A DNA stretch of 64,000 bases from Candidatus Bathyarchaeota archaeon. GTDB lineage: Archaea; Thermoproteota; Bathyarchaeia; Bathyarchaeales; Bathycorpusculaceae. The first letter of the stretch is position 1. Each line of letters opens with the position of its first letter. Position numbers and translations under genes: made by a program. Shown piece by piece: positions 2,988 to 56,143 of this stretch. The stretch spans positions 1 through 64,000 of the forward strand of contig CAVYXJ010000007.1 of NCBI GenBank assembly GCA_963772455.1, in the 5' to 3' direction. Below the pieces are notes generated by a model. That model was not told the DNA's origin and did no database searches. It was given only the letters and a program-made list of their open reading frames with translations.

Positions 2988-4461
2988 TCAAGTTCTTTCC
3001 CACCTCTGATCCTTTTCATGTCCACTCAGAGAGTTCAAACCGACAAATGCCATTTTGATATCGCCTACTGACTTCAAAGTAATCAATGATTTAGCCATGA
3101 AAACGGGGGCTTTGTGAATTTTCCAGATTTTTTCACACCAAATCATTGGGTCGTAGGAACATTTTAGCATTGGCTTCCCCATATCGTATTCATCATAGTT
3201 ATATGGATTAATTAGAAACCAATTGTTCTTTAAAGAAGCATAATACAATGGTGTTCCAGGATAAGTTACAATTACGCTTGATTGTAAACAATCCCCAAAT
3301 TTTGCTTTATAGAGCATAAGTTTTTTTGTTATATCATAGGTTCTTTGTACGTCCTTCTCACTTTCCCATGGAAAGCCGGTCATAGTTGTTAATTTCACCC
3401 GCAAACCATGATCCTTAGCATTTTTTACGCCGGCTACAATTTGTTCGATAGTTTCTTTTTTGCTTATTTGTTTTAATGTCTCGTTACTACCTGACTCCAA
3501 ACCAACCTTGAGGAGACGGAAGCCTGTTTTTTTTAGTATTTTACACGTTTCATCATTAAGATTATCAGCCCGAGAGTTGGAAGAAAGATTAACTTCGCCT
3601 ATTAGTCCTCTTTCATGCATTTCTTTGTGAAAATCACATAACCATTTTCGATTATAAATTCCGCCGCTTTCATTGTCATCGAATATTTCCTTGAAATGAT
3701 ATTTCTCAGTCATTTGGGCAATCTCTTCGGCAACATGTTTGGGAGAACGTAATCGTGCTTTCAGAGACCATAAGAGTATGCTGCCAAACACAAAACGCAC
3801 AATTACCAATTCCGCATGGTCCCCCTCCACATCCTCGACCGCTCATCAAATACCCAGAAGGATGGTGGAGGTAGGCTTCTTTGTAGTTAAGCCCAATAAT
3901 TTCCCAATCTATAAAAGGTAGTTTATCTAAATCCTCAATTAACTTTGGAGGCCCACTTTGGCGGATTTTTTCTTCTTCACGATACCATATTCCGCCGATC
4001 AACTCTGTTCCGTTAGTTACATGATTACAAATGCTACGCATAGCGAAGTCATAGTCGCCTGAAGCAACGACATAATCTGTTTGACTTTTCAACATTGACT
4101 CTTCAGGATTCCAAGTGACATGATCGCCGACTAGAACTATTTTTGTATCTAATTGCTTTTTTAGTTCTTCGATATATGCCCAATGCCTATAAATCATAGG
4201 TGTTTTGGTCTCGATCATCGCAATATCGGGCTTGAAACTAAAAAGTGCATTGTTATATTTTTCTAACTTAGTTCGACCAATGATGCCGTCGTGCCAGAAA
4301 ACTTCGTGACCATCTTCCTTTAGCATAGTTGCCGTGTAAGCTGGTACGATTGGAGGCGGAAAACTCTCCATAGTATTCGTAAATTTAAATTGTCTATTCT
4401 GTCCAATTGTAGGAAAACAACCGTCTTTAACTAAAGGCGGGTAGAGAATTGCAACACGCAT
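2988..4461 (-). CDS. B12-binding-domain radical SAM protein (split by one frameshift near 3780)
   Basis: ORF 3706..4461 has the B12-binding N-terminus (LVGDHVT) and GRGC...CAFC. ORF 2988..3830 has RSPKHVAEEI, VGLESGS, GFPWE and YPGTPLY. Confidence 0.85.
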
Positions 4462-6593: not shown

Positions 6594-7847
6594 TTACCTC
6601 CAAGTTATGATTTGGGCATTTTGTCTTGAATTATCGTAGTAAGATCCAGCTGTGAAGACCGCGTTTGATCCTGATACAAGTCCGAACGCAATTGAATTCG
6701 CTTCTGTCCCTGCCGTTGTAAACCAACTGGTCATTGATACAAGACTTAAACTGACTCCATTCCAGTCTAAAAGTTGAGCATAATCTCGGAAACCGTCATT
6801 TGTTGTTCCTATGGTGAAAATGTCCAAACCAGTACCAGCATTGTATTGACCTATGGCAATAGCATTGATCTGTGTATTTGAGGTGGTGAACCAAGATCTA
6901 TAAGAATTTACGACCATTGTTGCTCCGTCCCAAACAGCTAACTCAGAATTCCAACGAGTACCGTCAAAGAAAGAACCACCAGTTACAAGTTCGTTTCCAG
7001 CAATACCATTAACATTTCCGACGACCAAGGAGTTCAATAGTGTGGATCCAATTGTGCTCCAGAATCTATAGACACTAACAGTCATTGTAGATCCAGTCCA
7101 AACGGCTAACTCAGCATACCTCTGCGAATTGAAGAAAAATGAACTGCCAGTAACCACCTCGTTCAGACCATCATTGTTAACATCACCAACTGTTACAGCA
7201 GTAAGTTGAGTGTCAGAAGCAGTGATCCAGGCTCTAAACGCATTAACAGCAAGTGTGGCTCCATCCAAAACGACTAGTTCTGCATGCCATATTGTACCAT
7301 CAAAAAATGAACCAGCAGTTACAATTTCGTTTCCCGCTACACCATCAACATCACCGATGGCTAATGAACTGATTTGGGTATCTGCCACTGTAAACCAAGA
7401 CTTATAGGCGGTAACGACCATTGTTGCTCCGTTCCAAACAGCTAACTCAACATTCCAACGAGTACCGTCAAAGAAAGAACCACCAGTAACCACCTCGTTC
7501 AGACCATCATTGTTAACATCACCAACTGTTACAGCAGTAAGTTGAGTGTCAGATAAAGTGGTCCACGACCTGTAGGCAATAACAGTCATTGTTGTTGGAT
7601 CCCAAACTACCAATTGAGCATTCCAATGTGTCCCATCGTTGAAATAACCTGCTGTAACCAATTCGTTTTGTCCGTCAGCATTTACATCTCCAATTGCAGA
7701 TGAAGCAATATTGGTGTCACTAAATGTGAACCATGTTTTAGTATTCTGTGAAAGAAGGGCAGATGTTGTGTTGGACATAACTGACATTGTGAGAAATACT
7801 GCAATTGATAGCAGCACTATTATTTTTTGAGTTTTGCTTTTCAACAT
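6594..7847 (-). CDS. Secreted FG-GAP/VCBS-like beta-propeller repeat protein
   Basis: Signal peptide followed by about seven 56-aa repeats with GDVN.DG.NE.VT.G Ca-binding-like loops. Confidence 0.8.
   Translation of the reverse strand: MLKSKTQKIIVLLSIAVFLTMSVMSNTTSALLSQNTKTWFTFSDTNIASSAIGDVNADGQNELVTAGYFNDGTHWNAQLVVWDPTTMTVIAYRSWTTLSDTQLTAVTVGDVNNDGLNEVVTGGSFFDGTRWNVELAVWNGATMVVTAYKSWFTVADTQISSLAIGDVDGVAGNEIVTAGSFFDGTIWHAELVVLDGATLAVNAFRAWITASDTQLTAVTVGDVNNDGLNEVVTGSSFFFNSQRYAELAVWTGSTMTVSVYRFWSTIGSTLLNSLVVGNVNGIAGNELVTGGSFFDGTRWNSELAVWDGATMVVNSYRSWFTTSNTQINAIAIGQYNAGTGLDIFTIGTTNDGFRDYAQLLDWNGVSLSLVSMTSWFTTAGTEANSIAFGLVSGSNAVFTAGSYYDNSRQNAQIITWR
6910..7553. repeat. Near-exact intragenic DNA repeats
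   Basis: 71 bp identical at 7147-7217 and 7483-7553. 74 bp with 3 mismatches at 6910-6983 and 7414-7487. Confidence 0.9.
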
Positions 7848-7921: not shown

Positions 7922-7945
7922 TGTGACTTCAAAGATGAAGTCACA
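7922..7945. promoter_or_regulatory. 24-bp palindromic operator, site 1 (upstream of beta-propeller gene)
   Basis: TGTGACTTC-AAAGAT-GAAGTCACA has perfect arms. On the minus strand TTTTTAAA follows 2 nt later. Confidence 0.7.
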
Positions 7946-7970
7946 AACATATGTGGGTTTATCATGGTAA

Positions 7971-10900
7971 TCATCTTTGGGCGTTTGCAGTGTTTGATGG
8001 TGTAGAGTTGGCGGTCATTGAAGGATATCCAGTTACTGGGATGCCTGTGGCCATGAGGATGCCTACGTTGTTTGATGCTATGATTCTGTAGTAGTATGTT
8101 TGACCTGGGGTACCTGTAGTATCTGTGTAAGATGTGGCTGTTGCTGATGGAGGCGTAATTGTTGTGAAAGTGGTGAATGCTGAAGTTGTAGATTTTTCGA
8201 TGATTAAGCTCGTAGCGTTTAGGGCATTGTTTGTCCAAGCTAATGCGATGCCGCCTGTAACATGATTCGCTGTTAATCCTGTAGGTGCTTCTGGAGGCAT
8301 TACAAAACACATGGGTCGCATCATGTCATTTTCTTCGTGACCCAGTAGGTGGCAATGGTCAACGTATTCCCAGCCGAAGTTTGTCAGTTGATTAGTTACT
8401 GTAACAGGGTTGCCTATTGGATTGATGTTGGTGAAATTCATTGTGGCGCCTTGTGGTTGCGTTGGATCGAGTAGTCTGATGCTGTTTGGAAGCTTGAACG
8501 GATGATTGTTAGGAGCAATTGGTCTTAGTGCCAATATGATATCTTCGAGTGGATTCATTTGCACAGTGTCTTTCCAGCCAAGCTCATTAGGATCAGCAGG
8601 TTTTATAGCTCCGTCCCAGCCGACACGATTTAGAATTTGTACGTTGAACAGATGGAAGTGCTGAGCATGTGTATCTACTCCGTTGTGAGTGAACTTCCAA
8701 AGTTGAGTTCCATCGGTTGCCGATCCAATTGGAATGGCAGCACTAGAGTTACCCATGATTTCGTTTGGCGGATCTATGTAAGCTTGGATAATAGTTGTCT
8801 GAATTGTACCGTTAGTGTTAGGTATTTCATAGGCAAGAATTGCGTTCATTCGCCCATAATCGTTAGTGAAAAGCTCATGAAGTCCTTTGGGAAGCAGAGG
8901 CATAGTTATTGGGACGGTTTGGCCGACTGGAGTAAACGTGTGAGTTGTGTCTTGGATTCCTGCATAAGCGGATATGTCGCTTGGGAAGTTTCCATTGTAG
9001 GCTGCATTGTAGGGTTCTTGTGGACATATGATGGTGTCTTCAGATATACGGAATGCATTAGCTAAAGCTGTTTGTAACGCTGCAAAGGTGGCAGGATTGT
9101 AGTCATTAGGTGGTGCTGTTGAGGAAGCTCCTGCGGCTACGCGAATTTGCATTACGGTTCGGACGTTTGGACCGTAACCTGGGATTGTGTTTGGAGCGCC
9201 GCCTGTTGATGTCTGGTCTCCGTTGTTAGTGAAGTAGTCTAATCGAGGGTCAGAAGCCGGTACTGGAGCTGGTGCATCGTTGTATAAGATAAGGGTCTTG
9301 CCTGCGAAATTGGTGAAATCAATAAGTACGTCAGCTCTTTCAGCTGGTCCTAAGAAGCAAGCTTTCTCTAAGACGTTCAATACTGTTATGCTTCTTCGGT
9401 TGTAGTCGTAGCCTACTGGTCTGTTAGTGATTAATGCTGGAGCAGGTAGGAAACCGCCTTCTGTGCCGATTTGGATGATTGCTGGACCTCTCCGTGCTGG
9501 ATCTGGGAAACCTCCCGCTCTGCTATCTGGTGTTGGATAATCCGCTGGCCAACCACCTGCATTTGCTGGAAGCATACCAACTTCAGTTAAGCCCGTGTAT
9601 ATTGTTGCTGTTGCAGTTGCTGTCGTATTACCTATGCCTCCTGGCGGAGCGATTGTAACTGTGGGTGCTGATGTGTAACCACTACCTACGCTTAAGAGAT
9701 TAATTGCTGTTACTGCCCCGGCTGTCACTGTTGCAGTTGCAACTGCACCTGTTCCTCCTCCACCTGTAAGAGTTACTAACGGAGCAGATGTATACCCACT
9801 TCCTCCACTAGTAATATTGATTGTGTTAATGATGTTAGATACTAAATATAGTTGCAAGTTAACAAATCGATCGTTGCAGGCGTTTAGAACGCGGAACCTA
9901 ACAAGTGTTGGATTTACGTTAAGGAATGGGTAGGCGTTTCCGTTGACGAGTGGTGTATCCATGAATGATTCTGGTGTGCCAGATGGATTAGGAACTCCTG
10001 GAATTACCGGTGGTTCCCATGGTGCGGACGTTGGATTGTAGTATGGATTTGGCACTGTTCCATGTTGCACTGTCCAAGGAGGCCAGAACCATGGGCCATA
10101 ATCCCATCTGCCGCACGGGTTCGCTCCTTCAAATGAATAGGGGTTCTGGTTTGGCATGTAAACGTGGGGGAACCACAAGTCACCTGTGTTAGGTGCTCTG
10201 ACACCGTTGACTAATGGGTTACTTCCCCAGTTCCAAGTGGGATCTTGGGAAGCTATGGTTGTGGCATCTACAAAGGTTTTATCTTGAATAACTAATGGAA
10301 TTCCAATGTCAGGAAGAATTTTTGCTTGAGTTGGATTAGCTCCAGAATTGTTGGTTTGATTTATGAAGTCTTGTTCGACTGCATCAGTTAGCACGTAGCC
10401 CGCTGCTTCTCCAGCGTAAACGTTGAGACGAGTTATACCTAATGCGTGATCATGGTAAAACATTAGTCGAGCGCTTTGCTGGTTGCTGTAGAAAAAGGTT
10501 AATGTTCCCTGAGGTTCGTACTCCGCCATCCATATCGGGGACATTCTTTACTGCAACACCACTCGGGTAGGGAGTACTTTCTGTTGCAGGTGTAGTCCAT
10601 TGATGCGGAGTTCCATCGCTTATCCAGATTGTGTTGCCTCCGTGAAGGTGTAAAGTGGCACGGTTCTGTGTATAATTGCCTCCGCTTGGTCCTTCACCAG
10701 CACCCATATAAGTTGTATCACACGGTATGAAGAGATCTCCTCCAACACCCGTTGGGAGCTTGTTGACAAATTTTATTCGTACTGGACGATCTCTGGTGGC
10801 AACAATTATGGGTCCAAGATAATGAATTGGGGCAAGTGGAACACCCGCAGCATTAACCTGTACATAGCCCCTCAATTTGGTAGGAGGAAGATCTGAATGC

Positions 10901-11783
10901 ATTTTCTCCGTGTATTCTCTTAACTCTATTCTGTAGAAGTCAGATCCAGGGTAAGTTGTTGTATCTGCAACAGCAACTGGTATAAACTGTCCAAGGTTGT
11001 TTGCCCCTGTTGGTCCTAAACCAGGCAAAGAATCCACGAATTTGCGGATTCCACCATTGATAACAAAAGTTCCAGCTTGCTGGTGAATGTTGCTGTTGCA
11101 ACTGCTCCTTTGGCTCTTGGACTTGGGTCCCTTAAAGAAACCGTTGGAGCTGATGTGTATCCGGTTCCCGGACTTGTAAGTGTTAAAGCCACTACAACTC
11201 CGTTCGAAACTCTTGCCGTCGCTGTTGCGCCTGTTCCTCCACCGCCCGTGAGAACAACATATGGAGTAGTATATCCTGAACCGCCACTTGTAACTGAGAA
11301 ACCGCTAAGGGTACCTCCACTTACAGGAGTCCCAGTCACTGTAGGCAGTGGACTGTTAGCGTAATTACCTGTGGTTCCAAAATAGTCAGGTGTACCACCT
11401 GGAGCTGGAACAACAGTTGGAGCAACAACAGCTGCGTTTGGTCGTGCAGCAGCAGCTGCCAATCTCTGGGCAGGTGTTATTTTGCCTTTATAGTTTAAAT
11501 GGATCTTTTCTTTATCAGCCCCGGTTGTAGGAAGTGACTTAGAAACCGCTAAAGCCAATCCAACAACAGCCGCACCGCCTGCCGCAACCTTAACGAAAGT
11601 ACGTCGAGAAATCCTGTCATTTGCGGTGTTTGCGTTATGACGCCCCAACACTTTTTTGGTCGGGGGTTTTTTTTCTTGTGTTAATTCGCGAATTGGGGCA
11701 CCTGCAACTGCAGCGCCCGATTTGAAGAAATTCCTTTTAGACATATCCTTTACTGTGCTATCGGATTCTTTTGGGTTCGACAT
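7971..11783 (-). CDS. Large Tat-exported multicopper oxidase with C-terminal Fn3 domain (OmpB/MofA-like); two frameshifts (~11050, ~10520)
   Basis: Three ORF pieces join into one protein. Tat motif SRRTFVK; copper motifs [27 protein letters not shown]; Fn3 motif APTGLTA...W...YTD...YYYRI. Confidence 0.88.
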
Positions 11784-11833
11784 GAAAAGTATCCTCTTTT
11801 AATACCATTCTAATCAACATCCTTTTTAAAATA

Positions 11834-11857
11834 TGTGACTGTATCAGTACAGCCACA
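11834..11857. promoter_or_regulatory. 24-bp palindromic operator, site 2 (upstream of large MCO)
   Basis: TGTGACTGT-ATCAGT-ACAGCCACA, followed on the minus strand by TATTTTAAAA. Confidence 0.75.
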
Positions 11858-12006
11858 ACTTGCTTAAGGCATCAGATATACGATATGCAATTAAAAAGCA
11901 TCAAGGATTAATGAATTAGTTCTATCGAGTTGCGAATAAAACTTCAAGTTCTGGAATGTCAATTATTAACTTCCAGCATACTTTTATGCAGCTAATTTTT
12001 TGTTGC

Positions 12007-13741
12007 TTATGTTAGAGACAAAATTGCTGTTCCAGCAGCACCTTTGGCTCTTGGACTTGGATCTCTGATGCTGACTGTAGGAGCTGAAGTATAACCGCTT
12101 CCCGGATTAGTAAGTACAAAGCCTAGAATCACACCGTTGGAGACTCTAGCAGTGGCCATAGCGCCTGTCCCGCCACCACCAGTCAGGAGTACAGCAGGAG
12201 TAGTATAGCCACTGCCACCACTCACAAGATTGAAACCTGTGAGTGTTAACGTTGTCGGAGCCAAAATCGTAACTGTTAATGACACGTTATGAATAAATGA
12301 GCCGCTTGAGCCAGTTACGTTAACGTAGTATGTTCCTGCACTAGCTGCATTCGATGCTGTCACTGAAAGTACAGATTGATTTGAACCACCTAACGGAACA
12401 ACAATTGAGGATGGACTAAGTGATGCAGTCCAGCCCGAAGGAGAATTCACAGAAAGAGAAATTCTACCAGAAAAACCATTAATTGATGAAACTGTAATAG
12501 TTGAATTTGTTAAAGATCCATTTTGCGTTATTAAGGGGTGAGGAGAAGTCGAAATTGAAAAGTCAGACCCGATTCCAGTTGTATAGTTCCATATTATTGG
12601 ACTGCCTAAACCTGTGACAAAATCGTAACCTGTAGTCGCCGAGTATGCTCCGTTTGATCCCGATGTAATATCTCTAAAATATGTTGGACCACTCCATTTT
12701 GCGTCTTGGTAGAGGTTATTTCCTGAAACCGAAAGACTAAGGGAATGTATAGCAGCCCATTGAGGTGCAGCAGCGCTTGTTCCACCTACTTGGAACCAGC
12801 CTACTTGACCTTGATAAGCCGTCGTATCGTAGACGGAAAATCCTGATGCAGGGTCAGAATTATATGAGACATCAGGTATTGCACGTTTTCCGTTTGCACC
12901 CGAAACGTTGTAGGTCAATTGATATTGAGGCTCATTTTCATAAATGCTTACTCCGCCGCCACTTCCAGTCCAACCTGTTTCTGAAGCCACAGTTCCATCA
13001 GGATTAAAGTTAAGATGTGTGCCGCCAACGGCAACAACATTTGGTGAGGTTGCAGGATAAATTACTCCTGCCCCATTGTCACCTGTAGCTGCAAAAAAAA
13101 CTTTCCACTAGAACTGCTAAAATAGGAATCAAGGTTGTTTTCGCCCAAGAACTCAGATGTCCCCCAACTCATAGAGACAGCTACAACATCTGGACGATTA
13201 GTCGCATAGTTAATGGCTGCGAAAAGATCTGTTATAGAGTTGCTTTGGGCTTCAACTAATAGTATTGTGGCGTTGGGGGCTATGGCATGAGCCCACTGAA
13301 CATCAAGCGATATTTCCAGTGCCCAATTAGCATCAACGGGTATGTTTGGTCGTCATTTTATGGATTTCTAAATTCGTTGTGGGCAAACCATATTGCATGC
13401 TAAAAACAACGAAGTCATTTTGGACAGTTGGGCAATCGTATGCATCAATGATTGCAATGGTCCCATATCCACCCGTTGAGGGCAAGTTATATGCTCTTCG
13501 AATTTGCATTGGAGATAAACCGGTAGGAGAAACTGTTGCGAGCGAGATTGGGTTTTGGGATGTTCGTTTGAGGGCCAAGTTTATGGTTGTACGCATGAAA
13601 ATAAGTTTGCGCTGAAATCTCATGGTTGGGCTGCGAAGAAGCGACAATTTCTGAACCAGGCAAACAAACAACAAACAAGATTACAAATAGAAAAATGACC
13701 ATGCATATTCGGGCTTCTAATCGATGTTTCACTATTATCAT
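12007..13741 (-). CDS. Secreted S53 (sedolisin/kumamolisin) serine peptidase with C-terminal Ig-like and Gly-rich domains; several frameshifts
   Basis: Catalytic motifs EISLDVQWAH (~13290-13320), ATGDNG, RAIPDVS, GGTSAAAP and GYDFVTGLGSP lie across frames. Signal peptide in ORF 13487..13741. Confidence 0.85.
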
Positions 13742-13855
13742 TCCAAGAAAGTACGGGTAGTTTTCTTCTAAGCCCCTAATTATTAGGTGATTGACTTCTT
13801 TGTAAACTGTTTCCGAGTTTCGGAGGTATTATGCTTTTTTAACGATAAAAGCAAT

Positions 13856-13879
13856 TGTGGTTGTGACATAACAGCCACA
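13856..13879. promoter_or_regulatory. 24-bp palindromic operator, site 3 (upstream of S53 peptidase)
   Basis: TGTGGTTGT-GACATA-ACAGCCACA, with AT-rich TATA-like sequence just downstream on the minus strand. Confidence 0.75.
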
Positions 13880-14054
13880 GCATGGTAAGTATGAAGAGTT
13901 TACTCTGTTATGGGGTATAATTGGTAAAATAGTTTTATGGAAACATCGGAAAAAATTTTCTGAATATCTTAAGTGTAAAAAAATTTTTTAAAAGAGGAGA
14001 TAATAAAGTAAGATCCTTGTTCTTTTTTCATTTTGAGGATTTTAAATGGTTTCT

Positions 14055-14243
14055 AATTTGCTTTGAAATGACCAACTAAAGGCCGCATAATATCGTGTTT
14101 CTTTGTGTTCCAAGGTATAACAATGTGTTAAATATGCTCTATTCGTCCGTACTTCCATTTAACTGAGAAAGACATAGTTGGAATCTTGAAGAATATTTAG
14201 AGAGTAATATTTTAATTAGATTTGTTCTAACAGTTCCTTTCCA
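14055..14243 (-). pseudogene. Decayed multicopper-oxidase C-terminal remnant
   Basis: Minus strand reads WKGTVRTN...RF and YLTHCYTLEHKE/HDIMRPLV across frameshifts. These match the MCO consensus WKDTVxxNP...RF and YVWHCHILEHEExDMMRP. Confidence 0.65.
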
Positions 14244-14428
14244 TTATTCAGTAAGTGTATTGGATGATTTTGAGAATTAGAAAAATCCTGTTTCTTCCTC
14301 TTGTACTAACTGAGAATACGATGAGGTATCTAAAAAGTCAAAATCGATAAAAACTTGATAAATTTATTCATTCTTAAAAAAAGGAAAATAGCGGTTGGCT
14401 TCCGCTTCTTTAAGTTATTTGTGTGCAT

Positions 14429-16437
14429 TTAACCTTGTGGCTTATTGACACCGAAGTAGAACATCATGTCGTTTTCTTCATGTTCTAATATGTGGCAGTG
14501 GCAGACATACAAGTTAGTTCCTGTCGGCGCATCTTCAGGTAGGTCAAATTTGGCGATGATTCTTAGCACTTCTCCAGGATTGGCTTTTGCAGTATCTTTC
14601 CACCCTGTCTCTTCAGGTCCAGGTGGGATTGGCACAGTTGGCACACCATCTTGCAAAAGGAAATTATTAACTGAAGGTCTTGTTGCCTTGGGTCTTCCTG
14701 CCTGCGATCCATGCATTCCAAGCAACTAGGAAAGCCTTTGAATCGAATACCTGACGGTCTACTATCTTGAATTTTACAAGATGCAAATGCATTGGATGCG
14801 CATCTCCAGTGGTGTTAATGAACTGCCAGACGTTTGTTGCTCCGTTGTCTTCAGTAAATAGTGGCGGATTTGGTGGGGCACTTTCCGTGAAATTTTGTCC
14901 GTCTAGGAGGGCTTCTAAGGGTTGACCGGTAAGTGGGATCCATTATTTCTGAGATAACAATTTCTCTCCATTTTGATTTCGCTGGTTTTGTTAGCGGGGG
15001 ATCGATGGGTGGCAATTTTAGACGATTGGGCAATGACGTTGTGATCTTTTCGAACAAGTGGAACAATTTGAACTGCATTATTTCTAAGACCTGTCCGCCT
15101 CTTCCGCCTGGATAAGGAGCCTTAGCATTATTCATTAATGTCAACGTGTTGTGCCAGGCTTTCCTCCATTCCTGTGAAGTCAACGATGGTATCAAATCGT
15201 TCTCCTGGAGCTATAACTAGGCTGGTGAGCTTCGTTGGTTTAGGAAGGAATCCTTGCTCAGACCCTATTACCCATATTGGAAGAGTAGTAGGTGAACTTG
15301 GACCTTGGAACCAGATATTGTAGAATCTAGCTTGAGAACCGTTTAGGAAGCGGAATCTGTACCTTCTTGGTTCTACGTTAAAGAATGGAAATGCTCTCCC
15401 GTTCACTATAGGTGTGTCGCCGAAGTATTCTGGTATCCAGAGGGGATGAACAGTTCCTGGTGTGTTCGGTTGGCGGATATATTGCACCACCTGTTCCACC
15501 TGTCTGGAGGTCAAGAAGTCTGTCCTGTAGTACTATTGGAACCTCGTATGCTCCATTTGGAATTTCACCATCTTTAATGAGTTTGTTCTCACCTGTTGTC
15601 TCTTACGATGTATGCAGCTGCTTGTCCTAGGAATGGGTTGAATCTTGTGATTCCCCATGCATGGTCATGATACCATAGCATTGCCGCTGCTTGGTCGTTT
15701 GGATATTCGTATGTATGGGAACCTGATTTTTTCGGATCAATGTTTTTCCTTCTGGATATGGATTTGCCTGCGTGGATCCTACTGGCGAGAACCAGTCTCT
15801 GGGACCTCCATCGTGTTCAGTAAGTACTTTGCCGCCGTGTAGATGTACACAAACACGGTGTTCATCAGTCCAGCGAGCCAAGGTATTAGCTGGCAATCTA
15901 TGGATCAGTGTGTGCCCATGATGGTATAGTCCATTGGGCTCGACTGGACCAGCTTGATGAATTTGATGAAGTCCAGTTGGAAGTTTGTTTGTCACTTTAA
16001 GTTTCACTGGTCTTCCACTTTGGGCTACAATGGTTGGCCCTAAGTAAATGAAATACGCCAGGTACTGGAGCTGTGGCAAAATAACTTTGTGTATTTGTTG
16101 TAGCTGGCAAGCTTGAGTGAAATTTATGCCCTGTTCCAGGCACTATTGAGATCTCATAATAGTCCATTCCAGGATATTTCGTAGTATTGGGTGTAAGTAC
16201 TGGAGGAATCACCAAAGGATCTACGAATTTGTCAGATCTATCAGCTCGGGGGCACATTTGAGCAGCAGCAAAAATGGTTGAATCTTGGTCAGTTTTCCGT
16301 AAGGGTTTTGGCGTTAGTGTGCCGATTGTTGTCGCTATGGCTGTAGCTCCGGCAGCTATTCCAGCAATTTTTAAGAATCGTCTTCGGGAATTTCTCTCCT
16401 TATCTTGATGACCTATTTTCTCCTTTTCTTTATCCAT
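14429..16437 (-). CDS. Second Tat-exported multicopper oxidase (CotA/bilirubin oxidase-like); multiple frameshifts
   Basis: Tat motif SRRRFLK; VHLHGG; LWYHDHAWG (~15655-15680); YRFRFLNGSQAR; APGERFD; HPMHLHL (~14780-14800); GWKDT; HCHILEHEENDMM. Confidence 0.88.
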
Positions 16438-16499
16438 GCTTCCACTTTCCAAAAAGTATTTATGTTTAAAATAGGAAATCACTCACTTATTTAATATAA

Positions 16500-16523
16500 T
16501 GTGGTTGTCACAGTGAAATCACA
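16500..16523. promoter_or_regulatory. 24-bp palindromic operator, site 4 (upstream of second MCO)
   Basis: TGTGGTTGT-CACAGT-GAAATCACA, followed on the minus strand by TTATATTAAATA. Confidence 0.7.
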
Positions 16524-16567
16524 CTTTTTTACTCTCAGTTTTCTAGAAATAGTCTACAACTTTTCCA

Positions 16568-17214
16568 TTAGTCAATTTTATACGTTTTATCCGCCAATTT
16601 TGCCAAGTTAGAAGCATGAGTTGAAATCAGTATTGTTTTCCCTTCTTCTTTAGATTTTCAAAGAAATCAGTTATTGTCTTTGCAGAAGCTTCATCAACAA
16701 ATGTTAACGGTTCGTCAGCAACAATTATTTTCGGTTCAGTTATTAATGCTCTTGCCACTGCTACCCTCTGCTGCTGTCCTCCTGAGAGTTGTTCGACATT
16801 GAAATATGCACGTTCCGACAATCCCAACTGATTCAACAACTCAAGAGCGGATGCTTTGTATTCTGCTGGATCCACATCATGGCATATTAGCGGAGTCATT
16901 ACGTTTTCCAAAGCATTGAAGTTAGGAAGCAAATTGATGTGTTGAAAAACGAAACCCATGTTTTTTCTTCTAAAGATAGCTTTCCAACCGTCAGAGTAAG
17001 AGGTTACGTCTTCTTTGTCAAACAACACCTTGCCTTTAGTGGGTGTTAACAGTTGTCCTATCATACTCAACAGCGTGGTTTTACCGCATCCGCTGGGTCC
17101 AACTAGCGCCGTTATTGCTCCACTTTCAGCTGTCAAATTGATATCGGTAACCGCTTCAACTTGATGTTTTTTTCCCTGATTATAGATTTTCGTCAAGTTT
17201 ACTACTTCAATCAT
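16568..17214 (-). CDS. ABC transporter ATP-binding protein (LolD/MacB-type); C-terminal frameshift
   Basis: Walker A GPSGCGKT, LSGGQQQR and DEP motifs. The H-loop GKTILISTH lies in the adjacent frame after ~16645. Confidence 0.88.
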
Positions 17215-18437
17215 GCTCGGGCACCTCTCATAGCAATGTCAGGATCAACCGTCGCGTTAAGCCATGAAGGAATTACTGTAGCAAAAAGAAGAGGAACGAT
17301 AGTCACAGCAAAAGTGAAGAGAACAGTTTGAAGGCTAATAAAAACGGGTAATTGAAAACTTGGGTAAATGTTAGCCCATCCCAACATGAAATCTCTAAGG
17401 ACTGGAGCACCAAGAACACTATCGAAAAAAATTCCAATTGTCAATCCTATTGCACCAGCTAATGTCCCAAGCACCAAACTTTCCACTAGCCGAACCTGAA
17501 TCACGTCCGATGTTGAAAATCCAAGAGCCTTAAGAAGCCCAACTTCAAATTTCGATTCATGCCCAACAACAACAGTTTGATTAAACGCGATTATCGCCAC
17601 CGAGATTAAAATGACATACCAAACAATCGAGAAGAAACCTGATTTGTCACCGTAAGTTTTTTCCTGAGCATCAAGAAGAACATCTTTTGTTAACACACGA
17701 CAATTGGCCAACCCACTTATTGCCCGAGCCGCTTCATTAACAAAGCACCTTTTAAATCATCGTCTACTGGAGTAACATAAACCATCAAATCTGTTACTTT
17801 GTCATTCGGTATGTTGAAGAAATCTCGAGCTGCATTGAGGTTCATCAATATCATGTCTGCGTTATAGATGCCGGATTCACTGTTGAAAATTCCAACAACT
17901 GTATACCGCTTGACTTGGTTGGATTCTGATATTATCGACAGTTCAGTTCCAACACTAGCCCCAAGTAATTCAGCAACACCTTTTCCTATAACCACACTCT
18001 CATTCGACTGTGCATCAATAAAACGACCTGACTCTAAAGGGTAAGCAACTGTCAAATCAGGAGCAATCCTACCGTGTTGAGACATGTGCAGAGTTACCCA
18101 AATCGAGACCTACAATCACTATAAGCGTATTTCCTACGTTTCCATATCCCCAAATCCTTTGTGAAACAGTACTGACTCCTGGAGCGCTCCCCATAATGTA
18201 ATTCACGTAACTTGTTGGGATGAGTGTTTGTCTTCCACCTTGTATACCTTGAACGGTTAGGTCAGGAGCATACTTTAAGCTCAAAGCGCCCTCTTTCACA
18301 AGACCATCTGACAAGAATGCAACAGCGGAAAATGTAGAAGCTGCAACAACTAGACATATAAGAATAACTACTGTTCTCAATTTGTATCTTTGAATACAAT
18401 TCAAAGCATAATTCAAAAGATTCTTAAATCGTTTCAT
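17211..18437 (-). CDS. ABC transporter permease, FtsX/MacB/LolE-like; frameshifted into three ORFs
   Basis: N-terminal TM, extracytoplasmic GRF...VVIG...VVGIF segment, and C-terminal EVGLLKALG...E FtsX motif. Confidence 0.85.
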
Positions 18438-18746
18438 TTGCCACCCTCAATCACAGTAAAGTTGGTTGCCATTGGGAAACTAATGAAAGGAACACCCATC
18501 GAAAAATAGTTGCAGTAACCACCTGGCACATCATAGAGTCCAGTGCAAAGAACCTCAACGCCTGGGTTCCTCGCTGCAGGACTAAGATTTCCAACCGCTA
18601 CACTCGGCAAACCCACAATGTAACGTAAGAGAGTCGGCATTGTTTTCTTTCGTTGACCAAGAAATTTCGCTTACGACACAGGAAACAAAAACAAACGTAA
18701 GCAAGATTGCAATTGCATAAATTAATACTCTTGACGTCATTTTCAT
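18434..18746 (-). CDS. Small membrane-anchored hypothetical protein (frameshifted)
   Basis: Purine-rich SD-like sequence, then ATG and a hydrophobic N-terminus (MKMTSRVLIYAIAILL) joining ORF 18434..18640. Stop overlaps the permease start. Confidence 0.5.
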
Positions 18747-18762
18747 CTGCTTCCTCTTATGC

Positions 18763-19247
18763 TTATTTGATAATTAAAAGTACCCTCGTACCCATTTTCT
18801 GTTGGTGATAAAAAGGAAATTTCATTTCCATAAGTCAAATTGATAAGACATTCCTAGTTTTGGTGGTGGAGGCTTTACCAAGTCAAAACCTGAAAAAGTA
18901 ACGGTTGTTGATTCAATATCGGATCACTCGGTGTAGCATCAAATGTTTCGACAAGTATGCCATTGCAGTACATAGACAAAGTTCCCTGATTTTTGCCAAT
19001 CTTGAAACTTCAAGTCGACAACAAGTATTGCTGGATCATAAGTTGTATAATTAAATCGTGAACTTGCTCTTTGACCCGACTGAAGCGTCACAGTTTCTTG
19101 AGCATAATTCTCTTTGATTGAAAACTCCGATTTGACCATTTTGACCTGAACTTGAAAGGTAAGGGGTGATTCCAACAAAAACAGCAATCAACACAATTGC
19201 TACAACTACGCCGCAATTTCTACTACAAAGAGTTTCTTAAGGTTCAC
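18763..19247 (-). CDS. Hypothetical exported protein (frameshifted)
   Basis: Hydrophobic N-terminus near 19247 plus ORF 18939..19187. Fills the operon gap. Confidence 0.4.
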
Positions 19248-19269
19248 AAGATAAAACTCCAGTTAGATC

Positions 19270-20116
19270 TTAAAATCGATCTCGACTGAATTTGAAATAA
19301 TAGAAATCTGCTTTCACATTAAACATTGCTAAAAGCATCCCCACCCAATCTGCAATAACAATAAGAACTGTACCAATAACTGCTAAAATTATACAAACAA
19401 GCATGACTTTTCGCATTAATGACGGAATTTCTTTTTGAACACCTGGCATTTTATTTGAAGATCTCCGAAACAGAAAACTCCAAATTACTAATGCAGCTGA
19501 AACGGAGTATGCGGCAATAACGCCCCAAAGTAGAGGATACTGATATGTTATGAAGCAGAATGGGCAACCGACATTAAATAATCCAGGCGCAGTACTCGAG
19601 TAAACAACCATGCAGCAGGGAACAACCAGCGGTTTTAGTCCGCCAAAAAAAGCGATGTCCAACAAGGCATCAATGAATAAAAGCGGCAAGAGTAAAACAA
19701 AGCCTCGTGAGAGTGAAGTCATCATTGTAGAACCTTTTAGTTTTCGGTTCATTATATCATAGAAAAGCCAGCCACCAAAGGCAAACATGGTGAACAATTT
19801 CAAACCCAAGTCTGCCCAAGACCAAGGTGCTCCTGCTTGGAAAACACCAAATTCACACATTGCACCAGGAACAGAAGGAATTAATGATACGACGGTGATC
19901 CAGAATAGAGGAATTGCAAGAAATTCTAGTCCCAAGAGTCATCCAACCAACAGTTGAGACTAAGTAAAAATCTTTTTCCAATTCATAACGTTGGTCGGCA
20001 GATGCACCTTTGATGCCCTCTTCTACTTTGTATGCTTTCAATGCGGCAAAGCAACCTACAGCTAATGCGAAGAGAGCTATGGCTAAATCGACTGCTACAT
20101 ACAGGTTTACAATCAT
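19270..20116 (-). CDS. Cys-motif polytopic membrane protein (frameshift ~19925)
   Basis: ORFs 19853..20116 and 19270..19935 join. Several TM helices with PGAMCEFG, VPCC and GCPFC motifs. Confidence 0.7.
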
Positions 20117-20151
20117 CCATTATTTCTCCTTGTTCTCTGATTTTAATAGAC

Positions 20152-21795
20152 TTATGTGCTTTTCAGTTTCTTAAATGCAAAGATTGAGCCTGCTATTATG
20201 ACAACTCCAACAACCAAAGCCAGCATAAGCATTAGCGAGGTAGGTGCCGCAGTTGTATCTGCTTGGGCATACCAAGTACTTATTGCATCATTTACCAACT
20301 TGACCTGTGTAGTTGAGGGTAATGCGTAATGTTGTTCTGGTGAAGTGTATTGAGAGAATCCGTTGGCGAGGAGGTTGTCGGCTGCTGTTTGGTTATATGC
20401 TGCTCGAGCTGTAACGCAGCTTCCTCCACGCAGGTATATCGCAGTAGATGGACTAACTGTTACTGTTGCTCCATAGTTTGAGGAATCAACGGTTATTGGG
20501 TATGATGGTCCGTACCAGTCACAGTAAGTTTCAATATGTAACGTTTCATAGTCGTTGATAAGCTGCATGGCGCACATGAAGCATTCAACATAATGGATCT
20601 TTCCGGCTCCATCGGTTACTATATACCGTGTTTGAGATTCGGGGGTCACATCCATGCCGCATGCCTCGCATTCTAGAATTTCTCCAGTTATTGCTGTCGG
20701 CGCTGGCGAGTATGTTGGCGTGGCGGTTGGAGAAGTAGATGGAGATTTTGATGGGGACACAGAAGGCGAAATACTCGGAGTTGGAGAGGGAGTCGGTGAT
20801 GGAGTTGGGGTTGGAGAAGGCAATCCTACCCCATTGATAAGTGCTGCTTGAGCTACTCCTAGTCTGGTCGGGTTTGCATTTGCGGTATCGTTGCTTAAGG
20901 TTGAGAGCCATTTTGAGGTGCCGTTGTTTGGCAGCGCAAGCAAATCATCTGCAGCTGAAGAATTGTACACTATTCTGTTCTTAGTGCATCCTCCAGCGGT
21001 TATAATCAGAGCATCTGGCGGATTGACTGTGACATCAGTGCCGTTGTTTTTGGCTATTATTGATATAGGATAGCTTGGTCCGTAATAGTCACAGAAAGCA
21101 GTAATGTTAAGATCGTTATAGGTCCTCTGCAATCTTAGAGCGCAAACCGGGCAACATGCGATATGCAAAGTACCCGTAGCGTCAAAAATTTTGAACCGCG
21201 CTTGACCAGTTACATCCACTGACATTCCGCATTGCTCACAAGCAGAAGTTGCGCCTCCACCATACTGTAATACTGCCTGGGCGATCCCAATTCGGTTCGC
21301 GTTAGGGAGAACTGTAGCGTTAGTCATTGGGGAGAGCCACTGTGAGGCCCCATTATTTGGAGGCGAAAGCAGAGCATCAGCAGCAGCTGCATTGAAAACT
21401 AACCTGTTTTTTGCGCATCCACCGCCAAGAATTATTACCGCAGTCGGGGGATTTACAGTCAGAGCACTACCACTTTGCTTGGCGTTTATCGTTATGGGGT
21501 AGGTTGGTCCGTTATAGTCGCAAAAAGAAGTGATTGTGAGTTCTCCATACGTCTTAACCAGCTTGAGAGCACAAACTGGGCAACACGCAACATGCTGACC
21601 TCCGGAAGGATCCGTAATTCTGAATCGGGCTTGACCAGTTGCATCAACAGCCATCCCGCATGAGTCACATGGTTTTGTGTCCATTTGGCCATATGTTAAG
21701 GTGGCTAATCCGGAAATAAGCAAAGCTGAAATAATTACAATGTTAACTACAATTTTTGATTTTTGTGAAATCATATGGAAAATCCCTTGCCCCAT
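20152..21795 (-). CDS. Membrane-anchored surface protein with three NosL/TRASH-like Cys-rich domains (putative copper chaperone)
   Basis: Signal peptide; three copies of CxxCGM...C(C/F)xxC...CD(Y/W)xGP...GxC; Pro/Ser/Thr linker; C-terminal TM helix. Confidence 0.7.
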   Translation of the reverse strand: MGQGIFHMISQKSKIVVNIVIISALLISGLATLTYGQMDTKPCDSCGMAVDATGQARFRITDPSGGQHVACCPVCALKLVKTYGELTITSFCDYNGPTYPITINAKQSGSALTVNPPTAVIILGGGCAKNRLVFNAAAADALLSPPNNGASQWLSPMTNATVLPNANRIGIAQAVLQYGGGATSACEQCGMSVDVTGQARFKIFDATGTLHIACCPVCALRLQRTYNDLNITAFCDYYGPSYPISIIAKNNGTDVTVNPPDALIITAGGCTKNRIVYNSSAADDLLALPNNGTSKWLSTLSNDTANANPTRLGVAQAALINGVGLPSPTPTPSPTPSPTPSISPSVSPSKSPSTSPTATPTYSPAPTAITGEILECEACGMDVTPESQTRYIVTDGAGKIHYVECFMCAMQLINDYETLHIETYCDWYGPSYPITVDSSNYGATVTVSPSTAIYLRGGSCVTARAAYNQTAADNLLANGFSQYTSPEQHYALPSTTQVKLVNDAISTWYAQADTTAAPTSLMLMLALVVGVVIIAGSIFAFKKLKST

Positions 21796-21822
21796 AATTA
21801 CCGCTTGCTTCTTTTGAAAGTT

Positions 21823-21846
21823 TGTGGTAGTGCAGTAACAACCACA
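21823..21846. promoter_or_regulatory. 24-bp palindromic operator, site 5 (upstream of NosL-like/ABC operon)
   Basis: TGTGGTAGT-GCAGTA-ACAACCACA. Confidence 0.75.
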
Positions 21847-21965
21847 AATTATGACGCTGTCAACATAAAAAGCTTATGAAAAAAAGAAAAGATCTAATGA
21901 AACATCCAATTTACCAACGCTGAAACTTGAATCAAAATCCGAAACAGAAAAAATTTTCCTAAAAA

Positions 21966-22904
21966 TTACACAAGATAATGTTTACAGTTCGGACAGTAAT
22001 GCAGATTCGCCTCAATTGTAGAACGACAATACTTACAAGTTGAAGTAGGAGTTGGAACAGCGAACCATTTGGATAACAAAGATTGAGAGTTGCCGTTGCC
22101 AATTCTTTTTTCAAATATCTTGCCTGCGAATATGCTGATTTCAATCAATGAAAGAAGCGCTAAGAACAAGTAAAGGTCACCTATGGGTGTTGCACCTGGC
22201 GAGATTAACATAGCTACGATTATGAGTCCAGCCCAAATGTACTTTCTTTGCTTAGTAACTGTTTTTGTGTGCAATACCCCGAACTTAACTAAGAGCACGA
22301 AGAACGCTGGGATCGTGAAGAGGATTCCGCTTATTATGACTGTGAAAAATACTGTGCTGTAAAAATCCATTATCGGGAAGATTTCCATTGCATTTACCGC
22401 ATTATAGAATGGAATGAACCCTTGAATGAACGATGGAGCCAAGAAGAAGAAACCAAAGAAGGCGCCTAAAACAAAGAGTGCAGATACAACTGTGACGAAG
22501 GGAAATACCGCGTGTTTTTCATGCGGATACAAAGCTGGATCGATGAATTTGTAGGCTTCATATGCAAAAATCGGCAACGTTATTCCGACTGCAAACATAA
22601 CAGCCGCATATGCGTATAGAGTAATGGGATCAGACATAGAGCTTGCAAACAACTGCACTCCCTGCGGCAAAAACATGTTACCAATATAAACTAAAAGCAC
22701 GGACATCAACGGTTTATAATTCTCAGTAGTTGCAAAGAAGTCACTGTTGCCAGGAAGAACTAGCATAACAAACAACGAAACAACAAAAACAGCCAGCACA
22801 ATCTTCATACGTTTTATGAATTCGGTAACGTGTCCCCAGAATCCTTCAAAGAAGCTCTGTCCGTCAGGCATGTCAATGACTCTCAAATTCTTTTTTAGCT
22901 TCAA
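21966..22904 (-). CDS. tatC: Twin-arginine translocase subunit TatC with C-terminal zinc ribbon
   Basis: FWGHVTEFIKRM N-terminus, FIDPALYPHEK, six TM helices, ISPGATP. Tail CKYC...CPNC. Confidence 0.92.
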   Translation of the reverse strand: MKLKKNLRVIDMPDGQSFFEGFWGHVTEFIKRMKIVLAVFVVSLFVMLVLPGNSDFFATTENYKPLMSVLLVYIGNMFLPQGVQLFASSMSDPITLYAYAAVMFAVGITLPIFAYEAYKFIDPALYPHEKHAVFPFVTVVSALFVLGAFFGFFFLAPSFIQGFIPFYNAVNAMEIFPIMDFYSTVFFTVIISGILFTIPAFFVLLVKFGVLHTKTVTKQRKYIWAGLIIVAMLISPGATPIGDLYLFLALLSLIEISIFAGKIFEKRIGNGNSQSLLSKWFAVPTPTSTCKYCRSTIEANLHYCPNCKHYLV

Positions 22905-23040
22905 CTATTTTTTTTGTCAAGTTAGATGTGGAAGGGGAAGACAGAATCCTCTCGAGTTTTTTGCACTGAGTTAGTGAAAAAATTCTTAGGGAATCAAATG
23001 TCTTATTTTGCCAAGAAAGAATAAAGGCTGAAGTAGCCAT

Positions 23041-23379
23041 TTATTCGGCGCCTAAAATTTTTACTTTCACGGATATTTCTTCGGATAGTTGCTCTCTTGT
23101 TTTACCTTCAGTAGGTATACCTAGTTTTTGAGCTGTTTCAAGCAGCATTTCATCTTTAGTTTTGATAGCTGTTGGTTGAGTAGCAGGTGCGGCTTGCGGA
23201 GCTGGCGTAGGAGTGTTTTCAGTTGTTAAAGCGGCAGTATTGAATTCTTTTGATGCTTTGCTGAATTCGCCTTTGGCTTGTCCTAATGCACGGGCAAACT
23301 GTGGAATCTTTGCTGGACCCCACATGATAATAACGATTGCAACTACACCGATGATGATCCATTCCCATCCTTCGAGCAT
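23041..23379 (-). CDS. tatA: Twin-arginine translocase subunit TatA
   Basis: EWIII...WGPAKIPQFARALGQAKGEF TM plus amphipathic helix signature. Confidence 0.92.
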   Translation of the reverse strand: MLEGWEWIIIGVVAIVIIMWGPAKIPQFARALGQAKGEFSKASKEFNTAALTTENTPTPAPQAAPATQPTAIKTKDEMLLETAQKLGIPTEGKTREQLSEEISVKVKILGAE

Positions 23380-23443
23380 TTATAAAATTCTCCTGGATAT
23401 TTCTTTATTTTAACTAATGGTGAGTTGTTTTCTTAAATAGATT

Positions 23444-23467
23444 TGCTGTTGTATCATAGCAACCACA
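23444..23467. promoter_or_regulatory. 24-bp palindromic operator, site 6 (upstream of tatA)
   Basis: TGCTGTTGT-ATCATA-GCAACCACA, followed on the minus strand by TATTTAAG. Confidence 0.65.
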
Positions 23468-46938: not shown

Positions 46939-47256
46939 TTATTCTTTAATTTGGTTTTCTTCGGTTACTTTGAGAATATCTGAGTCCCCTGTTTCGCGGA
47001 TGCTTAGCGCAGAGATAATGAAGAGTTTCTTGCAGACCTCAGCTAAATCCATTGATCCACCTTTGTAAGTAATGACGGGAACTTTAGAGATTTCTCCATA
47101 GTATTCTATTTGTTCTTTTATGTCTTTGGGACAGTTTGCGGCTAAAACAATCATTTTAGCTTTGCCGGTTTTGGCGTTTTGCAATGCAACATTGGTTCCA
47201 AAGGATACTTTACCTGTTTTCACTGCGGACGCTAACGATTTATCTATGTCTATCAT
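46939..47256 (-). CDS. rpl30e: 50S ribosomal protein L30e
   Basis: AVKTGKV.FG, IVLAANCP and GDSDI motifs; canonical position after rpoA. Confidence 0.95.
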   Translation of the reverse strand: MIDIDKSLASAVKTGKVSFGTNVALQNAKTGKAKMIVLAANCPKDIKEQIEYYGEISKVPVITYKGGSMDLAEVCKKLFIISALSIRETGDSDILKVTEENQIKE

Positions 47257-56027: not shown

Positions 56028-56143
56028 TGCTTCTATGTATCATCGATTGGTGCTTTTACTTTTGCGGTAATATGAATCCAAAGAGAATCCGTTATCACCT
56101 GTTTTCGAAGCAGTTTTTATAAGATAATTTAAATCCGTTACTA

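Follow-up and report, generated by a model that had tools for sequence, protein, structure and literature searches.

The stretch of DNA analysed here, called the window, is the first 64 kb of contig C7 in the 2.45 Mb genome of a soil-dwelling Candidatus Bathyarchaeota archaeon (G000; 24 contigs, about 40% G+C, rated 92% complete). Between positions 7922 and 23467 it carries six copies of a 24-bp dyad, in which two 9-bp half-sites are separated by 6 nucleotides. A pattern search of the window returned exact matches to TGTG-N16-CACA at 7922, 11834, 13856, 16500 and 21823, five where 1.02 are expected; in 100 shuffles that preserved dinucleotides the count never came to five. The sixth copy, TGCTGTTGTATCATAGCAACCACA at 23444, deviates slightly and was read in place. 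The six operators of the original prediction are thus real and far from chance. The ORF (open reading frame) map and direct reading likewise bore out that all six are intergenic, each 17–181 nucleotides upstream of a minus-strand ORF start, and that they abut TATA-like boxes: on the minus-strand side a TATA-like run begins 0–4 nucleotides past the palindrome, the box at 21823 being weak. The sites and their boxes are as follows, with bit scores from the refined matrix described below.

7922..7945, no strand assigned: site 1, TGTGACTTC-AAAGAT-GAAGTCACA, 18.1 bits
7912..7919, minus strand: TATA-like TTTTTAAA, beginning 2 nucleotides past site 1
11834..11857, no strand assigned: site 2, TGTGACTGT-ATCAGT-ACAGCCACA, 28.5 bits
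11823..11833, minus strand: TATA-like TATTTTAAAAA, immediately past site 2
13856..13879, no strand assigned: site 3, TGTGGTTGT-GACATA-ACAGCCACA, 28.6 bits
13845..13851, minus strand: TATA-like CTTTTAT, beginning 4 nucleotides past site 3
16500..16523, no strand assigned: site 4, TGTGGTTGT-CACAGT-GAAATCACA, 23.1 bits
16488..16499, minus strand: TATA-like TTATATTAAATA, immediately past site 4
21823..21846, no strand assigned: site 5, TGTGGTAGT-GCAGTA-ACAACCACA, 24.9 bits
21812..21819, minus strand: weak TATA-like TTTCAAAA, beside site 5, with its AACTTTCAAAAG string kept in orthologous loci
23444..23467, no strand assigned: site 6, TGCTGTTGT-ATCATA-GCAACCACA, 21.6 bits, left half deviating at positions 3–4
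23432..23440, minus strand: TATA-like CTATTTAAG, beginning 3 nucleotides past site 6

The genes behind these sites include two multicopper oxidases (MCO1 and MCO2), a TRASH-domain protein and the tatAC pair.

6594..7847, minus strand: FG-GAP beta-propeller protein of 417 amino acids (Pfam FG-GAP, E 3.6e-12), the first gene after site 1, its ORF start 74 nucleotides away
7971..11783, minus strand: MCO1, a large multicopper oxidase with a Tat signal (Pfam TAT_signal and Cu-oxidase_2), behind site 2
12007..13741, minus strand: gene of unknown function in ORF pieces (Pfam NPCBM_assoc only), behind site 3
14429..16482, minus strand: MCO2, a second multicopper oxidase in five ORF pieces (Pfam Cu-oxidase, Cu-oxidase_2 and Cu-oxidase_3 on separate pieces), behind site 4
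20152..21795, minus strand: TRASH-domain protein of 547 amino acids (Pfam TRASH_HVO_1752_C), behind site 5
16627..20116, minus strand: ORFs for which no family was found, then a MacB/FtsX-type ABC exporter with its permease in pieces (Pfam ABC_tran, FtsX and MacB_PCD)
21966..23379, minus strand: tatA (23041-23379) and tatC (21966-22904) (Pfam TatA_B_E and TatC), behind site 6

Two earlier gene labels gave way in this annotation. The product behind site 3 had been called S53, a label that was not borne out: NPCBM_assoc is all that Pfam finds, whether in the window piece or in the unbroken 567-aa orthologue of the relative G012; the gene behind site 5 had been called NosL-like, and its product is a TRASH-domain protein by Pfam. 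The TRASH gene and the genes at 16627..20116 probably form one operon. Because the TRASH ATG lies only 27 nucleotides past site 5, this transcript is probably leaderless or nearly so. Pfam revealed no regulator gene among the window ORFs screened (those of at least 80–90 amino acids, less a few overlapping longer ORFs), in agreement with what had first been noted for the locus.

The genome-wide distribution of the dyad was examined with a matrix built from the 12 half-sites of the six window copies. With a spacer of 6 nucleotides this first matrix found 41 sites of at least 18 bits, any other spacer from 0 to 14 gave 0–7, and six first-order Markov genomes gave 0–4 at the same matrix. The original prediction had proposed such a genome-wide search, and it places the sites elsewhere than at random positions: 36 of the 41 are intergenic, though the ORFs of the crude map take up 83% of the genome and leave 17% as intergenic. 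An iterated matrix yielded 70 sites of at least 14 bits, against 7–8 when the spacer was shifted by -2, -1 or +1, and the refined matrix yielded 61 of at least 15 bits, with the consensus TGTKRYTGY-N6-RCARYMACA flanked by a weak TT before and AA after. Sixteen of these 61 lie between divergent genes, 33 between tandem genes, six between convergent genes, five inside ORFs and one at a contig end. The six window sites had been taken to define a regulon; they are only six of about 61. They do form the densest cluster of the genome (six sites in 15.5 kb, where 0.40 are expected per 16 kb; Poisson P for six or more about 4e-6), with lesser clusters on C12, C5 and C21. The right 40 kb of the window, seen by eye to be free of copies, proved so by matrix as well, with no site of at least 15 bits at 24–64 kb; the next sites on the contig are at 183528, 353744 and 400432.

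A palindrome of this kind could also act as a nucleic-acid hairpin, for example by terminating the gene that lies before it or by folding into a structural element of RNA or DNA. Every window site is in fact also downstream of another minus-strand gene, and site 1, with a perfect 9-bp stem followed by TTTTT, lies 26 nucleotides past the MCO1 stop codon. Site 1 is, however, the sole perfect palindrome among the 61 genome sites, 54 of which have 2–5 mismatches in their nine pairs. At the degenerate positions 4, 5, 6 and 9 the two halves are complementary in 22, 29, 32 and 26 of the 61 sites, where independence predicts 27.0, 30.4, 27.6 and 29.0, so that there is no sign of selection for pairing; what is conserved is particular letters rather than base pairs, and the distal and proximal halves are conserved equally. 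Moreover, the 16 sites between divergent genes stand where transcripts do not end, and the spacing to the TATA box is fixed. Because the two halves vary independently, the dyad is, on this sequence evidence, best read as a protein-binding site, and we regard the hairpin as hardly credible.

To place the dyad relative to the core promoter, a general promoter model was derived by expectation-maximisation from 962 upstream regions of the genome, giving C-r-a-A-A-n-n-Y-T-T-W-W-A. The best TATA hexamer begins at offset 4 from the dyad end in 16 of 57 sites, and at offsets 1–6 in 30 of 57; random intergenic points put through the identical procedure, and scaled to 57 sites, gave about 1.7 and about 11, respectively. 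ORF starts mostly fall 44–73 nucleotides past the dyad. At about nine sites a TATA-like word stands on either side, and these dyads may act for divergent promoters. The same order of palindrome, gap and TATA box recurs in five relatives of the genus, with a gap of 3–5 nucleotides, and in the distant genomes G128 and G235, with a gap of 4. By these positions the terminal A of the dyad, together with the AA that flanks it, appears to coincide with the conserved AAA of the BRE (the element recognized by transcription factor TFB), and the dyad would span roughly -57 to -34, overlapping the BRE by about three bases.

Fusion to the BRE and TATA box at a fixed distance would also suit an extended BRE-like specificity element, read by an alternative TFB or TATA-binding protein (TBP) paralogue in a role like that of a sigma factor. 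The genome has four clear TFB genes and one weak match (C7:95790, C7:466294, C19:8865 and C21:55638), and the paralogue at C21:55257-56231 lies 650 nucleotides from a weak site. The dyad itself speaks against such a reader, in that its 24 bp are two-fold symmetric and its halves conserved to the same degree, where the single asymmetric helix-turn-helix of a TFB would select 6–7 bp. Nor does TFB number follow the motif in the five genomes compared: the four relatives examined have two TFB genes each, the motif-positive G008 and G017 and equally the motif-negative G006 and G018. We consider an alternative TFB or TBP improbable.

Conservation at orthologous promoters, a further check put forward with the original prediction, was found at three of the window loci. 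At orthologues of the TRASH gene (43–88% protein identity) a site of at least 22 bits occupies the same place in 10 of 14 loci, a random window reaching even 15 bits in 0.25% of cases. These sites stand directly before AACTTTCAAAAG or a similar box, and their spacers differ. In two loci the right half is decayed, one has a 5-nucleotide spacer and two lack a site under the matrix. Of four close tatC orthologues, three (G002, G010 and G012) retain the site upstream of tatA, each with an identical AATCTATTTAAGAA box. For MCO1, with two orthologues, the site is full in G012 and only its proximal half is present in G001. Spacer sequences thus drift while the sites stay in place. A dyad with a perfect score and a TATA box also precede an archaeal TRASH gene on an 8-kb contig (L044) whose record is titled as a Candidatus Sulfotelmatobacter metagenome-assembled genome; this contig, filed under an acidobacterial bin, is probably mis-binned.

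These comparisons bear on the notion that the dyads were left by a repeated or mobile element, or that an abundant chromatin protein simply prefers to bind there and regulates no particular genes. A few site regions are indeed duplicated (C3 10485, C18 18723 and C19 33102; C12 180920 and C23 18318; C5 34742 and C15 1090), and genes for Sso10a-type HTH_45 proteins are numerous and sometimes adjoin sites. Most sites, on the other hand, have unrelated flanks and spacers. Sites also share one offset from the TATA box and persist, in more than one family, at the orthologous promoters of genes that are unrelated to one another, and G017 has four exact sites without any match to the HTH_45 query. Either reading is accordingly very improbable.

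The taxonomic range of the motif was surveyed with the exact degenerate pattern, of which this genome has 11 copies. Within the genus the pattern was present in 22 of 24 genomes, with 1–18 copies each, and in other families of the order in 1 of 16; a reversed control pattern gave no matches in all 41 genomes of that search. A sample of the class contained the pattern in 20 of 301 genomes, made up of 11 of 14 in the genus, three of six in another genus of its family, and further genomes scattered singly. One of the latter, G128, belongs to a different family; its exact sites number 37, spread over 33 contigs, which is more than threefold the 11 found here. The distant G235 has seven, six of them in one 9-kb island (C5:21762-31804, L157). 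Among other classes of the phylum, matches occurred in 1 of 336 genomes, with two copies. The distribution is therefore patchy, and in these samples it follows the larger genomes.

In this genome, genes directly behind sites encode a large catalase with a DJ-1 domain, CsbD, a KGG/LEA-like protein, Hsp20, MsrA and two DUF1428 proteins. Further targets are GYD, cupin, SRPBCC, PhnB-like and F420-oxidoreductase genes, stand-alone RAM-domain proteins and three C2H2 mini-proteins, and genes for Usp, OsmC, MscL, a nitroreductase and a flavodoxin lie nearby. Across this genome and five genus relatives the KGG/LEA-like genes are the most recurrent targets (11 members in six genomes), often in tandem and each with its own site; other targets in the relatives include a 404-aa GT1 glycosyltransferase (four genomes), RAM/GYD-like proteins and small membrane proteins. 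Among the targets of G128 are DUF1428, Hsp20, a bacterial-PH-domain protein, an AhpD-like CMD protein, a glyoxalase, a tautomerase, a cupredoxin and a YHS/TRASH mini-protein; a site also accompanies a G128 protein 36–40% identical to the TRASH protein of the window. The island of G235 holds genes for an Fe/Mn superoxide dismutase, ferritin, GYD, a photolyase and a TrmB-MEDS regulator, one site ending 23 nucleotides before the start codon of the last. Orthologous genes that bear sites in more than one family include those for the TRASH protein, DUF1428, GYD and an 85–98 aa protein family taken up below.

Judged by these annotations, the theme of the regulon is general, oxidative and desiccation stress. 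The factor had been proposed as possibly Cu- or redox-sensing; a Cu-sensing regulator may yet apply, but the regulon is not centred on copper. Within the genus MCO1 was found in three of 25 genomes and this tatC in six of 25, and the multicopper oxidases, TRASH protein and tatAC form an accessory branch present in few relatives. A search of the genome for the archaeal AmoA family gave no match, but the control genomes likewise gave no response, so the negative carries no weight.

The two DUF1428 proteins of this genome (C12:30872-31198 and 51732-52058) are 75–79% identical to one in G128 (L129). Among 61 genomes each representing one genus of this family, only the present one has DUF1428, which was not found in the other 60; E. 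coli, one of the control genomes, also has a match to DUF1428. Closeness to the copy of another family, together with this absence from the other genera of its own, suggests a recent transfer.

Taken together, the symmetry, the 6-nucleotide spacing, the independent halves, the intergenic bias, the TATA offset and the conservation at orthologues fit a dimeric sequence-specific factor at the edge of the BRE and TATA box, much as the original prediction had it. We put at roughly 80% the probability that the dyad is the site of a homodimeric stress factor that controls about 60 promoters. The factor would most likely be a winged-helix protein. Given its overlap with the AAA of the BRE, the bound dimer would contact bases that TFB has to read, and would act at the recruitment of TBP and TFB; responding to stress, it would switch the whole promoter set together. 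Gene content suggests that the signal is oxidative or drying stress. In the present genome the set would include an accessory module of secreted multicopper oxidases, the TRASH protein with its ABC exporter, and Tat genes whose products would export the oxidases.

Several observations weigh against a single stress factor at the BRE. No RNA run was found to cover the locus; the positions of TATA boxes, BREs and transcription start sites rest on sequence models from this genome, and under the TATA matrix 27 of 57 sites lack a best-scoring hexamer at offsets 1–6. The core promoters behind the dyads, with a median score of 4.7 against 6.2 for general promoters, are not clearly weaker, the comparison being biased toward general promoters, whose scores are the best of 65 positions. 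Called ORFs contain five of the 61 sites. Since many of the downstream ORFs are short and match no known family, the stress label depends in part on the minority that could be annotated. Finally, no transcription factor candidate passed: each failed or lacked a specific pattern of presence and absence.

Activation, in which the homodimer would recruit or stabilize TFB from a fixed upstream position, is slightly favoured over repression by occlusion of the BRE, because the position of the site is constant across unrelated promoters and families, as a fixed protein contact requires. A repressor would need only some overlap, and occlusion of the BRE by the proximal monomer is fully viable. In archaea, a factor that binds immediately upstream of the BRE tends to be an activator that recruits TFB or TBP, whereas one that covers the BRE/TATA region or the start site tends to be a repressor. 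In the Thermococcales, the position of the SurR or TrmBL1/Tgr site relative to the BRE and TATA box decides between activation and repression.

A dyad-defined regulon of a transcription factor is a familiar kind of system; the motif, the regulon and the lineage appear to be new. The activators Ptr2 of Methanocaldococcus, TFB-RF1 of Pyrococcus and GvpE of haloarchaea have sites directly upstream of the BRE and TATA box. The likeness lies in a dimer site that abuts or overlaps the BRE at a constrained distance, with presumed recruitment of TBP and TFB; the present dyad differs in sequence and has one shared geometry at about 60 promoters, where activation is putative. The SurR and TrmBL1 regulons resemble it in that they are global, serve redox or metabolic control and have palindromic sites close to the core promoter, and several TrmB-family genes here sit inside site-rich islands, a parallel to TrmBL1. 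The motifs, GTTn3AAC and, for TrmB/TrmBL1, the TGM TATCAC-N5-GTGATA, do not match the 9-6-9 TGTGAYTGY dyad, and the consensus of the 41 sites differs from the TGM, which places the dyad outside the TrmB/TrmBL1 motif. MsvR, RosR and OxsR are winged-helix dimers that bind near promoters and control catalase, superoxide dismutase and redox-repair genes, in other lineages and with other motifs.

The dyad had not been recognised as a CRP motif, and this was upheld. The outer letters TGTGA...TCACA and the two-fold symmetry are common to CRP/FNR sites (TGTGA-N6-TCACA), whereas TGTGA and TCACA here stand 14 nucleotides apart, not 6, which departs from the 5-6-5 geometry; a CRP-equivalent 9-mer spacer of -2 cannot exist and so fell outside the scanned spacings. 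In addition, the inner TGY/RCA pair is equally conserved here, and the host is an archaeon with BRE/TATA promoters. In content the set overlaps the bacterial sigma-B and sigma-S general stress regulons (a DJ-1-domain catalase, CsbD, YciG-type KGG proteins and Hsp20, with OsmC and Usp nearby), except that control here would pass through a dimeric factor at a BRE-proximal dyad and not through an alternative sigma factor.

Candidate regulators were judged by their presence and absence across genomes and by synteny. An HTH_45 (Sso10a-type) winged-helix gene at C11:23076, 178 nucleotides from a site, has orthologues of 65–68% identity in motif-free families and no match in the motif-positive G017, and the sites of its paralogues lie at -202 and -500, not at the canonical position. 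The HTH_45 genes that directly follow canonical sites in G005, G019 and G128 are other paralogues, 28% identical, for which this genome lacks a close orthologue; they are targets rather than a common regulator. Small CxC...HxxxH proteins, with three paralogues behind sites, are restricted to the genus and were not found in the motif-rich G003, G008, G013, G017 and G019. A dyad at G000:C11:22547-23381 (L013) lies between an HTH_45 gene and a CxC...HxxxH gene whose product was found only in this genus, and divergent pairs of an HTH_45 protein and a CxC...HxxxH protein of about 90 aa occur in up to 15–16 copies per genome.

A 314-aa Cys-rich double winged-helix protein beside a KGG gene looked promising on eight genomes, and was dropped with the finding of orthologues of 56–61% identity in motif-negative genera. 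The TrmB-like gene at C12:198020 is always inside site-rich islands (G000, G002, G003, G013 and G019) and is this genome's best match to the TrmB-MEDS gene of the G235 island. Its close orthologues occur in only four of 24 genus genomes, and it is at most a local regulon member. TrmB-family regulators of the genus bear varied sensor modules, among them CBS, MEDS and response-regulator receiver domains (L158, L161, L162, L163 and L157:3282-4697). A single protein query found 7–19 TrmB matches in most genus genomes and 0–2 in motif-poor ones; G024 is an exception, with 14 matches and only one exact site.

The gene most faithfully linked to the motif by sequence comparison belongs to the 85–98 aa family, represented here by an 89-aa protein at C11:81511-81777 (L015:3087-3353; other loci L174-L192). 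The family shares the core FQVLLLDN..VEVQE..VDF..VKEHL.NGGSVFITSK and has basic tails. In the class sample, matches with E no greater than 5e-8 were found in 16 of the 20 genomes that have the motif and in none of the 281 that lack it; weaker matches occurred in 40 motif-negative genomes, one family accounting for 33. All 13 orthologues from the taxonomic family of this genome have a site no more than about 90 nucleotides from the ORF start, and in G182 it falls inside an over-long ORF call of the gene. Sites precede two of four paralogues in G128, one of two in G040 and none of four homologues in motif-negative genomes. The protein has no Pfam family and no sequence match in the PDB. An AlphaFold model of modest confidence (mean pLDDT, the predicted local distance difference test score, 68.6) has a beta-beta-alpha-beta core, for which Foldseek gave nothing at E no greater than 0.001 and the best VIA-align Z was 4.2. 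The protein may simply be a core target; that it is an autoregulated regulator or a cofactor, the two taken jointly, is rather unlikely.

A broader reading joins these strands, and we hold it tentatively, as less probable than its alternative. The system would be an archaeal counterpart of the general stress response of bacteria, in which one master factor would read the BRE-fused dyad at 60 to well over 100 promoters per genome of soil and peat Bathyarchaeia, and would drive genes some of which are bacterial in type, among them those for a KatE-like catalase, CsbD, KGG proteins and DUF1428. Its patchy spread, in lineages that meet oxygen or drying, would have come about through transfer or through loss on several occasions. 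The 85–98 aa hallmark protein might then be the regulator or its partner, as a new kind of DNA-binding or TFB-contacting protein.

We know of nothing published on transcription regulation in the Bathyarchaeia, which are abundant and almost uncultured, and in the part of the literature reached by a full-text search nothing was found on the motif or on promoter regulation in this group. The motif would offer a sequence-defined regulon that links defence against oxygen and reactive oxygen species, desiccation-type proteins and secreted copper oxidases. It could be used to read metatranscriptomes for a coordinated stress response and to fish out the regulator without culture, and it bears on how archaea derived from anaerobes adapted to oxic, drying soils. 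A dimer site fused to the BRE at many promoters would also be a natural system for communication between archaeal regulators and TFB.

The gene structure of the site cluster is interrupted in several places. MCO1 is split into three ORF pieces (11016-11783, 10450-11037 and 7971-10544) and has weak PhsA/CueO-like NCBIfam matches; its orthologues are single frames of 1278 aa (G001) and 1270 aa (G012). The product at 12007..13741 has a domain in common with the MCO1 N-terminus. Overlapping ORF pieces make up the two multicopper oxidase genes and the adjoining gene of unknown function (7971-16482), the FtsX/MacB permease (17211-18437) and a B12-radical-SAM gene (2988-4461), and intact orthologues of these broken genes exist in relatives. 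Low-depth short-read contigs of a peat metagenome, which match the window at 90–99%, show 1-nucleotide indels relative to it at 10518/10519, 13350, 14703, 14931 and 15743, all five inside broken genes and the first within the overlap of two ORF pieces. Because of these indels the frame breaks are probably assembly errors rather than marks of pseudogenes.

Elsewhere in the cluster, same-strand glycosyltransferase and B12-radical-SAM genes come after the FG-GAP gene, so that the propeller heads a glycosyltransferase cluster, and the NCBIfam matches of tatA and tatC to tatAE and TatC-Arch fall below curated cut-offs. The right half of the window contains, by Pfam, genes for RNA polymerase subunits, Orc1/Cdc6, NucS, an aldehyde ferredoxin oxidoreductase and molybdenum-cofactor synthesis. 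The largest RNA polymerase subunit is a single unsplit ORF of 1277 aa with Rpb1 domains 1–5 (47253-51086), and a LAGLIDADG ORF adjoins a DNA methylase gene (55134-56815). The Orc1/Cdc6 gene at 36740-37930 may mark a replication origin.

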